Shown: piece after piece, positions 1,451-7,400 of the stretch
How positions within the stretch are numbered: the first letter of the stretch is position 1
Layout of the letters: every line of letters starts with the position of its first letter
Assembly: GCA_000934665.2 (NCBI GenBank)
Contig: JYFJ02003355.1
Span: forward strand, 1 to 43,040
From: Catajapyx aquilonaris
Taxonomy: Eukaryota
DNA: 43,040 bases
Direction of reading: 5' to 3'
The notes under the pieces: generated by a model
Told to the model about the DNA's origin: nothing
Seen by the model: the letters and a program-made list of their open reading frames with translations, nothing else
The model's database searches: none
Made by a program: the position numbers and the translations under genes

Positions 1451-4400
1451 TCACAAGTTAGTTGTCTGTATCACAGTTTCACCATCATCATGAGTGTAGG
1501 CAGGATTTTCGAATGCTACATTCAAATCATCATTACCACCATTGGAATAGCTCTGTCTAATAATTGAGCTTCTGGGTGAACCTTCTTTGCGTGCCAAATA
1601 GCTCTGGAAAAAAATATAATGTTAATGTCAATTGTCACTCATGACTTATTTATTAGTAATTTACCTCTTCTGCAATTTTGGCCAAGTAATTAGCAGTTGC
1701 CTTCCCTGTTTGCTGCACCATCTGGTAGAACAGGCTATGATTATCCTTCAGTAATATATGTGGCTCATCAAATTCCTACATGGTGACAAGAAAAGGATAC
1801 TCAGCATTTTATCAGCATAATATGTTATTAATCATACTTTGATCCTTCCGGCATCCATAACCATCACCCTGTCTGAATCCATTATGGTATTGAGCCGATG
1901 TGCAATGGTCAGAACAGTGCATTGCTGGAATTTGTTTCGGATTGTGTTCTGAATCAAGGCATCTGTCCTGAAAGAGAATAACCACAATGATAATGAGCTT
2001 ATAAGTGCTGGTATCAATAACTCAATAACTCAGCCATACTTGGGGTCCACGTTTGCTGTGGCTTCATCAAGCACCAGTATCCTGTTTTTTCTCAATATAG
2101 CTCGTGCTAAGCACACCAGCTGCCTTTGTCCCACACTGAAATTGCTTCCGCCTTCTGACATGGTGCTCACCAGTCCACCAGGCAAATCTTCCACAGCACT
2201 TTTCAACTCTACCTACAATGACTTGTTGTTAGGGTGGCTCAAATTTGGGAGTAGTTTCTAAGTATTGTACAACCTCTTCCAGGACGTTCCACAAGGCATT
2301 GTCGTCAAACTCATCAAATGGATCCAGATTGGCACGCAGGGTTCCTGTGAACAGTACTGGGTCTTGAGGAATTATGGAGATCTTTCCACGCAACTCATGA
2401 AGACCGACATCCTTGGTTGGAATGCCGTCTATGTAGATGGTTCCTTCGGGTTCAGTCATCCGGAAAAGGGCCGCAAGTAAGGATGACTTTCCAGCTCCAG
2501 TTCGTCCTACTATCCCAACCTGATGAAAAACAATAATGTAAGAGAAGATGGTCATAATTTACTTTTCACCATAAAATCATTGAAACGGAATTGAAGTACC
2601 TTTTCCTTTTGTCTCATGCTGCAGTTCAAGTTCTTTAGGACAGGAGCTTCACCTCCATAGCTCAAAGACATGTTCTCAAATTGAATTTGTCCGTGTGACG
2701 GCCACCCTACTGGTGGTTTTTTGTCTATCACCAAAGAGAAATAATTAAATATGAAGATTTCCTCTCAACGTGCCATCTGTGACTTATTCATAGAAATAAA
2801 ATTACCATTATAAATAGAATGCATACCTGGGTCAGACACAAGGCTGGCTTCAGTATCAACTTTGGTATATTCAAGCACACGCTCAACAGACACCATCTGG
2901 TTTTCCAGTTCAGCTGACTGCCTGACACCCCACTGAAGGGTACCTGTCAGCATCATTGCTTGAGAAATGGCCATTCCCACATCTCCTCCGTGAATATCTG
3001 AGAGGAAAAGAATTCATGAGGTACATTAAAAGCAGTTCAGAGTCGCATCTGGTTTTAACATTTATTTTTAATGGAAACTTACTCATAATATCTTTCATTG
3101 CTATGAAACTGTAGGTTACGAGTGCAAGATAAGTAGTGCACACCCAGTCTAAAACGACACCAAACCAACGAGTTGTTGACAGGAATAGGTACCAAGCTGA
3201 GGAGTGTAGATCCTATTTAAGATAATGTAATGTTAGTTCTCAAATATAATTGAAATGAGCATCTTCAATTTAACAACCAGTTTGGCTTCAGTGCAGTTTA
3301 TGAAGAAATATATATAGCTGTCATATGTTATGCCCACAAACCTTTGGAAAGTCAACCAGATTTTTACACTTATGGGGATCCTCACATGTAATACATTGCA
3401 CTTACATTTAGTGACAGAAACTCAACTCACTTGATGACTGTCAAAGTCTTTCCTAAAGATTCCTTGTGCTTTAAATGCTCTGACAGTTGTCAGTCCCTGA
3501 AGGGTTGTGCTCAAGTGTGAAAATACAGGACTTCGAGCTGAAACAAGATCCAGTAATTTATTACTCATTTGATGCATGAAAAAAACACTTGCCTGGGTAA
3601 TTGCATTACGGTTAAAAATTATGTGAAAGGAAGCAGGAGCATAATCATGCCAAAAAACTGAGCAAAAAAACACAATAACTTACTGAGACCTTCTAAGCGC
3701 TTAACATCACGAATAGTTTGAAAGGCAAAATAACGCAGGAGGAAGAATACAGCAATCAGGGCAAGTGTGGGAGGAATGACCCACACATTTGAAATGGCAT
3801 TTAATACCAGAATTCCAAGACATTGGGTGTAGATCTGTAATTGTAGTTAAGAAAAGCTCACAGGGAGACATACATCACAGCACATGTAAAGCACAAATAA
3901 AATAAAAAATCATTGCATAAATCTGGTGCAAAAACACACAAACTTTTCGTTCACATGCAAAGCACCATGTAAATGAAACAGCAGCATTTGCAGGAAGCAA
4001 CAGAGTATGTGTGCCTAGAAAGAAACTCACTTATTCCTTCCAACCTCTTGATATCCCTTCCAGTGCGTAAATAATAAACACGCATGAAATAGCACACTAA
4101 CCCAAATATCGCTGTAGGGAGTGTGAGGTAGTAATTTACCACAAAGATATTAATAACTATCCCAAGGATGTTGAGCGATATCTGGAATGAAATAAACAAA
4201 TAGCTACAACCTTTGAAAAAATCTCTAAAAGCAATCCGTTATGATATAATGTGGTAATAATAATAATCAGCAGTTGAAGCATTTACAAATATTATGCGGT
4301 AGGTGTGCCATGCAGAATATGATATGCAAAGCATGCTAGTATCAAAACATGGTACTGTTGTTATATCAAAATACTAATTGCCATGCAACATGCTACTCTA

Positions 4401-7400
4401 CTTCCACCAATCAAACACCTCGTTATTATGAAACTATCTTGACAGAATTCTATAGAGTATATCACTTTGCTTTAAATATCAAAATATGTGGCATTATCAA
4501 ATTAGTTCACCTAAGTCCTAAGTGAACAATAATAATAATTCCTTGTGCAGAAACAATGAGTCACAAGAAGAGCGGTAAAGAACTGAAATTTACTGATGTG
4601 AAAGTGAAAAGAATTAGAAAAATAAATCTTACACCAATAACATCAAAAAGTGTTGGGGGAAGCAGGTCATCTATCTGTCCTATATCTTTGCTGAAGCGAT
4701 TCAAAATGCGGCCTGGAAGGAAAAGATACATGTAATGTCATAGACAAGATGAGCCAGCCCTTATTCCTTTTTACAAGTACCTTGAGTTTAGTAATGGTAT
4801 ATACATGTACACTCAGTAGCAATTACTGTACAAGCCTATGAAATACCAGACGCATACTAGCTTAAGAATGGCATGTTATCATATTTTGTTACTCAATGTC
4901 TTTATGACAAATTGCATGCAGGTTCAGATGGGTGCAACAAGTGCATGCTAACATTGCATGTGACAGCAACATACACATAAAAATGAAATATAAAATCAGT
5001 AATGGGTCTCAATTTGCATGAGTAATTTCATCACAAGAAATTTATTGTTACTGTTAAACTGCAAGCGAGAATAAAAAGTGCAGTAAACTTTGAGCAGCCA
5101 AGACATATCACCTATTTCATGCATAGAAGGTGCTTTATTTTAGTTATGAAGAAGCTAAATTTCTTTTTCACTTCTTACTTCCAACACATCATAAAATGTT
5201 TGTGGTAGGTAATCATCTATTGAGCCAATATCTTTGGCACAGCGATTTAATATTCTTCCTGTAAATTCAGTTTGAAAAACTCTGTCATTTGTCACACAAT
5301 ACTGAGAGATGCTTGAAATTACTAACCTGCAGGATTGGTGTCAAAGAAAAGTATTGGCGCTTTGATTATCCCCTTGAACATGCTGTTGTGAAGATTCTCT
5401 GAAGAGTCCATGCATGCCTTGAAGAACCATAAAGTTCTCACAAACGACATGACAACCAGTCCTAGTACGAGGCCAACGTAAATGTACAGATAGAGGTAGC
5501 GATCATAATGCATTTCGTAGGCTGCAGTGCTGGTGCTTCCCGGAAAAGCTGTTGTTGTGTTCAGTGGGGTTGTAATGGTAGAGGACAGAGATGACTCCAA
5601 CAGAGATTGAGTTGTGCTTGATGCAAACTCTAACAGAGCTGCTGTAGGTGGCGGTATTGGTGTTACGGATGGTTTTAGACTTGAGTGAGTCACGGTACTT
5701 CCAAGAGGCACGGTTGACTGGAGTCTTGATGTTGTGCCTAATGAACTGGGGTGACTGGGGTGAAAGGGCCCTGTAGTTGTTTGATGATTAGTTCGGTTAT
5801 ACAGGTCCTCCTCGTCAGTCCTGAAATAATTTGAAATGTTGCAATATTAGAATAATTTCTTCAATTTTCTTCGTGTAAAGTGTTTATGACTTACCATATG
5901 CCAAGCCACAGATCACCGCCACTGTATAAGGCCTGTGTGATGATGTTTGCTAGCAGGATCAGAAAAAGGACAAACCAAGGTGTTCCAGCATGTAGGTATT
6001 TGCCATAAACTCCAATTCCCATCCCTCCTTTGGTACGCTGCTCCTCGACTTGCTTAGGTTCGTCCTTTCTTTCTGCCTTTGAACCATCTGATGACATTTC
6101 ACCCTAGAAATTAATGAATATTACTGTGTTGCAGGTATTCCCTGTACAGGCCTACATAGTACTAGTGTAATAAAGGAGGAACTTTACCCCGTCATATGAC
6201 TGATACATGGAAGACGGGTCTTTCACTAGAGAAGGTCCAAAAAGGCTGCCCTCAGACACAATCTGGGTGGGAGTGTCTGGTTCTTTAGGCATTTCAGTAG
6301 TTGGGGATGATGGAATAGCCCCTGTGGCAGTGTCTCGTCGAGTTCTCTCTTCTTCTCTTCTTAGAAGTTTGGCAAAGTCTACTCCACTGTTGACAAGGTC
6401 ATTGAAACTTCCTTGCACCTCTGCATGCCCCTAAGAAGTAAGCATAATTTTATACAATAGCTGAAGGTATTTTCTTATGTGTCACATTGTCAAAACATCA
6501 CATAATTGTGCTGTAAATTAATACATACATTTCTTAGAATGATAATTTGATCTGCCTTTTTAAGGAACTGAAGCTGATGAGTGACAAGGATTCTTGTCTT
6601 TGTTTTCAGGTACTTCATGATACATTCTTCAAACAAGTGGCGTCCCACATGAGGATCAACAGCTGAGAGAGGATCATCCAGCAAATAGACATCTGCATCC
6701 AGATACACTGCCCTGAAAATCCAGTGTTCCAAAATGGTCAATATCATGTAAATAACAGGAATGATAATGATATGGATTTTGGAGTATGGGAATAATGCTG
6801 ATTTTGTTTGCAAAGGGAAATGAGATAACCCTGAGACAATTATTCACATGAACACAGAGAATTGACATTATGTATTAGCATTAAATCACCACATTATCCC
6901 GTACATGCCCAATACTATTATGCATCTGCATTACTGGGGTGAACTATTCTCAATAGTGTAATTGAATTGGTCTGTGTTTTTTGGAAATTTTAAATCTAAG
7001 GACCAGAGTTACTTGGAATGTTAATTTTTTTGTGGACTAACGTACCTGGCAAGATTAACCCTGGCTTTTTGCCCTCCACTTAGGGACATGCCTCGGTCTC
7101 CAACCAATGTTCTGTCTCCATATGGAAGCTGGATGAGATCCTTGTCAAGCGCACAAGCATGAACAACTTTTCTGTATTTAAATTCATTGAACTCCTCTCC
7201 AAATGTCACATTTTGCCTCACTGAACTGGCAAAAACCCATGGCTCCTGGGATGTGTAGGCTATTCTTCCTGTAGTGTGGACACAACCACTTGTGGCTGGC
7301 AATTCCCCCAGAATTGCATGGAGAAGGGATCCCTATGATATGATAAAGCAGGGTTTTATTACAATGAATTAACTTTATCTAACTGCAGAGAAAATAATAT

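Follow-up and report, generated by a model that had tools for sequence, protein, structure and literature searches.

The window analyzed here, a stretch of 43,040 nucleotides (nt) from Catajapyx aquilonaris (positions 1 to 43,040 of contig JYFJ02003355.1, assembly GCA_000934665.2), carries on its minus strand a gene for an apparent ABCC4/MRP4-type exporter with two adjacent two-exon clusters that are probably subject to mutually exclusive splicing. The predicted protein has two transmembrane domains (TMD1 and TMD2) and two nucleotide-binding domains (NBD1 and NBD2). In TMD2, an 80-nt exon is present as copies A1 and A2, followed by a 151-nt exon present as copies B1 and B2. The reading frame admits a single member of each pair, and both members of each pair look constrained; together, these properties make mutually exclusive use the best reading of the locus. 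Features are listed below with window coordinates; TM denotes a transmembrane helix and ICL an intracellular loop.

1665..9477, minus strand: body of the ABCC4-like gene (TMD1, NBD1, TMD2, NBD2), as mapped with two homologues
5327..5820, minus strand: constitutive upstream exon, 494 nt; Ser/Thr/Pro-rich extracellular loop and TM8; ABC_membrane match, E 1e-08
5179..5258, minus strand: exon A1, 80 nt; derived copy of the ICL3/inner-TM9 exon, corresponding to ABCC4 residues 819-845
4633..4712, minus strand: exon A2, 80 nt; canonical-looking copy of the ICL3/inner-TM9 exon
4031..4181, minus strand: exon B1, 151 nt; outer TM9, TM10, and the start of ICL4, corresponding to ABCC4 residues 846-895
3684..3834, minus strand: exon B2, 151 nt; second, more derived copy of the TM9-TM10 exon
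3431..3537, minus strand: constitutive downstream exon, 107 nt; coupling region of ICL4, with the RSPVFSH motif, and what follows

An earlier note, written from the letters of this stretch, had proposed the paired arrangement; its coordinates, lengths, splice sites, and frames all hold when the exons are reextracted by coordinate. The upstream exon ends in phase 1, just past an FFDTNP motif. All four variable exons are preceded by AG, followed by GT, and share a common phase, with the donors GTAAGA (A1 and A2), GTGAGT (B1), and GTAAGT (B2), none of which is U12-like. The acceptors differ in the strength of their polypyrimidine tracts, with pyrimidines at 11 of 18 positions for A1 (weak), 15 for A2 (strong), 14 for B1, and 12 for B2. 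From 5' to 3', the introns of the region measure 68 nt (between the upstream exon and A1), 466, 451, 196, and 146 nt, and steric exclusion between adjacent copies is therefore not expected. A six-frame profile scan of the first 12 kb of the window detected A-type segments twice and B-type segments twice, with no further copy of either type.

Each of the four combinations that take one exon from each pair is open over 277 codons, from the upstream exon through the downstream exon. Joining A1 to A2 produces a stop that begins 9 nt into A2 (position 4703), and joining B1 to B2 produces a first stop 125 nt into B2 (position 3709), confirming the earlier note's claim that inclusion of both copies of either pair ends the frame. 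As neither 80 nor 151 is a multiple of 3, omission of either pair alone shifts the frame. The exception to this rule is the joint skipping of all four exons, which is in frame and removes 231 nt (77 residues). Inclusion of all four exons also restores the downstream frame, but passes 7 stops. No productive mRNA can contain more than one member of either pair.

The two adjoining exons, both ancient, were each duplicated in tandem in this lineage. A transcript carrying both copies of a pair, or neither, would shift frame and meet early stops, so that only mRNAs with one exon of each kind would encode the transporter; the other products would be cleared by nonsense-mediated decay. The choice between copies would be regulated, and its likely purpose would be to derive from one gene several pumps with distinct substrate preferences and perhaps distinct coupling between the TMDs and NBDs. 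The pairs show all four of the features that passages of the WebScipio/Kassiopeia literature give for tandem-duplicated mutually exclusive exons (PMC3923563), namely similar length, splice-site pattern, frame, and homology. Features of this type are predictive only; in the passages of a study of human candidates, validation comes from junction reads (PMC5740500).

The copies are clearly related to one another. A1 and A2 are identical at 18 of 27 residues and 52 of 80 bases (65%), and B1 and B2 at 17 of 50 residues (34%) and 70 of 151 bases (46%). Random ungapped pairs drawn from the same 2.5 kb, a sampling region that contained the four exons themselves, have a mean identity of 26.8%, with a standard deviation (SD) of 5.1% for 80 nt and 3.7% for 151 nt, placing the A pair ~7.5 SD and the B pair ~5.3 SD above chance. 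This likeness is concentrated in the first two codon positions (20/26 and 20/27 identical for A; 26/51 and 28/50 for B), whereas third positions are near random between copies (12/27 for A; 16/50 for B). The flanking intron sequence, compared over 60 nt on each side of the copies, is alike at only 13 to 24 of 60 positions, no better than chance, indicating that neutral sites have been randomized. The same divergence bears on the origin of the copies. That they stand in tandem is all that would suggest an assembly or haplotype artefact duplicating a stretch of the gene; haplotype copies would be near-identical, whereas base differences here reach 35% in the A pair and 54% in the B pair and the intervening introns are unrelated. 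We regard such an artefact as refuted by this divergence and its probability as negligible.

We next consider the selection acting on the copies, for which the earlier note had called for a dN/dS (ratio of nonsynonymous to synonymous substitution rates) analysis. Computed by the Nei-Gojobori method between the copies in this genome, the proportions of synonymous and nonsynonymous differences (pS and pN) are 0.71 and 0.24 for the A pair, giving a dN/dS of ~0.13, which points to constraint rather than neutrality. For the B pair, pS is 0.76 (saturated) and pN is 0.47. With synonymous sites saturated and nonsynonymous sites not, both copies of each pair look selected. Free drift for long enough to randomize silent sites and introns should also have erased the coding sense.

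The same picture emerges from profiles for which only independent homologues were used (20 segments for B and 23 for A, taken from proteins found with HMMER). B1 scores 67.2 and B2 56.2, against a family leave-one-out mean of 61.4 (SD, 12.1; range, 31.3 to 82.4); A1 scores 44.9 and A2 63.4, against a mean of 51.1 (SD, 6.7; range, 38.8 to 61.0). When neutral drift was simulated at 0.25 substitutions per site, the frame stayed open and the score reached at least the observed value in 0 (B2 to B1), 1 (B1 to B2), 19 (A2 to A1), and 0 (A1 to A2) of 2,000 runs; at 0.5 substitutions per site or more, this happened in 0 of 2,000 runs in all four directions. Of the columns conserved in at least 80% of distinct homologues, all 4 are retained by both B1 and B2 (74 homologues), all 13 by A2, and 11 of 13 by A1. 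All of these constraint tests cover a single genome.

To place the duplications among relatives, we turned to metagenome contigs, which were scanned with a small A-exon profile; 351 stretches were confirmed, and the best 80 loci of these were kept. In 16 of the loci, A and B are separated by more than 40 nt, and these loci were treated as intron-bearing. Among these, A is an 80-nt exon in 14 of 16 and B a 151-nt exon in 15 of 16, with AG and GT exactly at the positions seen in the window, and each exon is single-copy. As judged by this comparison, the 80-nt and 151-nt exons are shown to be ancient and normally single-copy, and the arrangement in the window to be derived. The pairs thus fit the reading, made in the earlier note, of paired exons, and are true tandem duplicates of ancient single exons. 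Since the order is A-A-B-B and not A-B-A-B, two separate tandem duplications must have occurred. Four loci were initially flagged for tandem copies, but in each of them an intron or a frameshift had divided one single B exon. No isoform-like contig pairs, with the same flanks and a swapped A or B, were present among the 80 loci, and a metagenome scan with B1 alone gave 588 pattern matches, none of which was confirmed.

The homologous segments also distinguish the two members of each pair. Of the A segments from homologues (n = 102), 90 resemble A2 more closely, 1 resembles A1 more closely, and 11 are equally close to both; the corresponding counts for the B segments (n = 81) are 53 for B1, 19 for B2, and 9 equally close to both. 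By this measure, A2 and B1 are the conservative copies and A1 and B2 are more derived, which fits the earlier guess that A1 and B2 would escape automatic annotation; a gene model of the locus will probably hold only one copy per pair. The B copies are each closer to some foreign homologue (54% and 50%) than to each other (34%). A 50-column tree does not date the B duplication, and a clade of B1 plus B2 is not rejected (p-AU, 0.448). A2 plus B1 is likely the default form, because these exons have the stronger polypyrimidine tracts and lie closer to the family consensus, with A1 and B2 likely being regulated, specialized choices.

Several observations weigh against mutually exclusive use of all four exons. 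None of the 80 best metagenome loci carries a duplication of A or B by tblastn and six-frame profile scan, although the profile scan recovers two of each in the window. No protein containing the upstream exon, B1, or B2 was found in the collections searched, a weak point as the organism seems absent from them. (The low-complexity loop probably swamped the search with the upstream exon.) A1 has Cys where Phe is present in 80 of 81 distinct homologues and Ala where Ser is present in 77 of 81, both at nearly invariant positions of the NRFSKD motif, and A1 and B2 have the weaker polypyrimidine tracts (11 and 12 of 18). These substitutions and weak tracts would also fit a little-used or recently dead copy, and A1 is, on these grounds, the least secure of the four exons. 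The drift simulation starts at the sister copy and not at the true ancestor, and it ignores insertions and deletions, an omission that favors the neutral model. The constraint tests are, further, blind to recent loss of use, which they cannot exclude. Finally, among human candidates chosen by comparable sequence criteria, 1,399 of 6,541 were verified by junction reads, according to passages of PMC5740500. It is this low rate of verification that leads us to call mutually exclusive use probable, and not more than that, despite the evidence for constraint.

Much of this evidence could be accommodated if, in one or both pairs, a copy (A1 most likely, B2 possibly) were a relic that is no longer, or was never usefully, spliced, leaving one or at most two proteins. 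The two motif changes in A1, its score in the lower part of the family range, and its position behind a 68-nt intron with a weak polypyrimidine tract are all consistent with such a relic, as are the protein searches without a supporting record for the upstream exon, B1, or B2 and the failure of most sequence-predicted human candidates in validation (PMC5740500, in the passages cited above). We nevertheless consider it unlikely. Although silent sites and flanking introns are saturated, each of the four exons has retained its frame, its length, its splice sites, and the residues typical of the family, and the observed profile scores almost never survive neutral drift at or above 0.25 substitutions per site. 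A loss of use would have to be quite recent to agree with these results.

The frame logic itself raises another alternative, in which the extra copies serve mainly as "poison" exons, their joint inclusion causing a frameshift and mRNA decay that tunes the level of the pump. The early stops produced by joining A1 to A2 or B1 to B2 and the weaker acceptors of the derived copies agree with unproductive splicing of this kind. A poison exon, however, needs neither an open frame nor a family-like protein sequence, and A1 and B2 keep both (dN/dS of ~0.13 for the A pair). Such a role could coexist with mutually exclusive use but leaves the constraint unexplained, and as the main function of the copies we judge it improbable. 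Mutually exclusive use of both pairs therefore remains the reading that we prefer.

The assignment of the gene rests on several segments. Pfam ABC_membrane and ABC_tran segments occur in full-transporter order from ~8.9 kb to 2.2 kb on the minus strand. A HMMER search with the TMD1 open frame returned 2,613 proteins at E <= 0.001, of which the best full-length homologues (P0002, P0003, and P0005) are only 54 to 57% identical to it, indicating that the protein library searched holds no close relative. With P0003 and P0005 as tblastn queries, the gene spans the window from 9297 to ~1665; A1 and A2 match one and the same stretch of the homologue, and B1 and B2 match the next. In searches against solved structures in the PDB, the TMD1 exons match ABCC4 with 119 bits, CFTR with 74, and ABCC3/ABCC1 with 36, and NBD1 matches ABCC4 with 122 bits, plant ABCC13 with 96, CFTR with 89, and ABCC5 with 88. 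Searched singly, A1, A2, B1, and B2 each have ABCC4 as the top match. The architecture may be TMD-NBD-TMD-NBD without an N-terminal TMD0: the alignments of two homologues, 1320 and 1396 residues long, start at position 9297 with their residues 2 and 27, both candidate first exons described below encode the extreme N terminus, and no ABC_membrane match is present among the open reading frames scanned upstream of 9.3 kb. Similarity of every segment tested supports an ABCC4/MRP4-type (short MRP) gene. The same assignment had been made in the earlier note, and it stands, with ABCC4 the best solved structure for TMD1, NBD1, and all four variable exons (vertebrate ABCC4/MRP4 structures 8bjf, 8bwo, 8swn, 8sx7, and others).

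The structural matches also locate the variable exons in the fold. A1 and A2 (E 2.3e-05 for A2) both match ABCC4 residues 820-844, and B1 (E 2.2e-04) and B2 (E 1.5e-03) both match residues 848-894; the last A residue therefore corresponds to 845 and the first B residue to 846. On this alignment, the A exon comprises ICL3, where the NRFSKD motif lies, together with TM9 at its inner end; the B exon comprises the remainder of TM9, TM10, and the start of ICL4. For the exact helix limits, we assume those of the ABCC4 database entry. The A exons had previously been equated with ICL3 alone; ICL3 is indeed present, but the last residues, to 845, fall in inner TM9. This inner-TM9 part includes two positions that line the MRP4 substrate pocket.

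Passages of a structural study of bovine MRP4 describe contacts of the TM9 residues D842, Q845, and Q849 with prostaglandins and dehydroepiandrosterone sulfate (DHEA-S) (bioRxiv 10.1101/2022.12.22.521501), and the human ABCC4 pocket helices are described, in passages of PMC11948813, as including TM9. At the position equivalent to 842, both A copies have D. At 845, where MRP4 has Q, A1 has E and A2 has G; at 849, also Q in MRP4, B1 has N and B2 has Q. A fourth residue named in passages of the bovine study, T856, falls at a position where the aligned chains have V. Across their variable parts, the four productive mRNAs differ at 9 of 27 residues in A and at 33 of 50 in B. The isoforms would thus be distinguished by residues on the side of TM9 that faces the substrate and, where A1 is used, by the ICL3 motif as well, from which we infer that specificity or coupling may be changed. 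A more far-reaching proposal is that the combinations of A1 or A2 with B1 or B2 act as a specificity switch, exchanging the TM9 residues at 845 and 849 together with the ICL3 motif to give four pumps with different cargo or coupling in different tissues, and that this switch arose by convergence, independently of the MRP1-type arrays of arthropods and nematodes. We offer this proposal tentatively and think it more doubtful than not. If all four exons are used, the gene would yield four MRP4-like pumps differing at TM9 substrate contacts and at ICL3, where the membrane domain contacts the ATPase, and would amount to a natural experiment on the substrate preference of ABCC4-type exporters.

Mutually exclusive exons are known from other MRP genes. 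Drosophila MRP has a cluster of eight, according to passages of PMC6071210, PMC9741552, PMC7434440, and PMC9013439, and such exons also occur, with independent origins, in C. elegans mrp-1 and in the MRPs of annelids and molluscs (Yue et al. 2017, as cited in passages of PMC6071210, PMC7434440, and PMC9741552). The gene in the window resembles the metazoan MRP arrays, as those passages portray them, in encoding an ABCC exporter and in having equal-length tandem exons that lie in a membrane domain and of which one would enter each mRNA. It differs in that the known arrays are described there as MRP1/mrp-1 type, whereas the window gene is ABCC4-type by every segment tested, and in that the known MRP genes are described with one large array, whereas the window gene has two adjacent two-exon clusters. 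The earlier note thus overrated the novelty of the locus, as independent arrays in metazoan MRP genes are already published in the first three of these sources (PMC6071210, PMC7434440, and PMC9741552, in the passages cited). In the literature as judged by titles and the starts of abstracts, we found no description of mutually exclusive exons in an ABCC4-type gene, and the passages of PMC8318948 are without them. The sources consulted contain no report of duplicated A or B exons in vertebrate ABCC4, whereas the window gene has both pairs. Use of all four exons would represent another independent invention of exon swapping in ABCC transporters.

RNA structures in which intronic selector sequences compete to pair with one docking site control exon choice in Dscam and 14-3-3zeta and have been reported for insect MRP, whereas no such pairing was found here: an inverted-repeat search of positions 3400-5400, in this sequence alone, gave nothing beyond chance, the best arms (25 nt with 72% complementarity and 11 nt with 100%) being about what is expected from 2 kb of DNA this rich in AT. 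The region's five introns (3538-5326; 1327 nt) are rich in TGCATG, with 5 occurrences against 1.29 expected (8 of 1,000 dinucleotide shuffles reach 5), and in GCATG, with 9 against 2.45 expected (0 of 1,000 shuffles reach 9). The motif density is 3.8 per kb in these introns versus 0.2 per kb in the rest of the gene. (U)GCAUG is an RBFOX-type splicing motif. The motif was first spotted by eye, and the antisense strand is equally rich (5 TGCATG and 7 GCATG), such that the enrichment may reflect RBFOX-type splicing control or merely a palindromic, GCATGC-rich composition. The B1-B2 intron also contains a direct repeat of 30 to 32 nt (3881-3912 and 3952-3983, plus-strand coordinates), the copies of which are 73 to 75% identical and 71 nt apart; one of them holds TGCATG on the RNA strand.

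Other parts of the gene have features of their own. In the exon upstream of A1 (5820-5500, minus strand), an insertion of ~100 residues rich in Ser, Thr, and Pro, with N-x-T sites, lies in the extracellular loop before TM8, a point of difference from vertebrate ABCC4. It has a mucin-like look and is probably glycosylated. In TMD1, the open frame 8293-8868 contains at 8575-8680 (minus strand) a phase-0 intron of ~93 nt without stops. Several of the library entries found (P0004, P0006, P0008, P0013, and others) prove to be open frames from other organisms that read through an intron at this very position of TMD1, indicating that protein libraries contain uncurated eukaryotic genomic fragments. 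At the 5' end, there are two candidate alternative first coding exons, at 13977-13904 and 9477/9462-9368 (minus strand). Both have an ATG start, a short-MRP N-terminal motif, a phase 2 end, and a GT donor, and both can be joined to the acceptor at 9296/9295. If real, they would imply that alternative promoters lie ~4.5 kb from each other, and there would be twice as many isoforms.

An Rfam scan of the whole window gave 0 matches. Upstream of the transporter gene and on the same strand lies a serpin gene (18175-19591, minus strand), visible as at least 4 exon-sized pieces (Pfam Serpin, E 3e-25 to 5e-09), and a perfect (TAA)22 microsatellite occupies positions 19949-20015.

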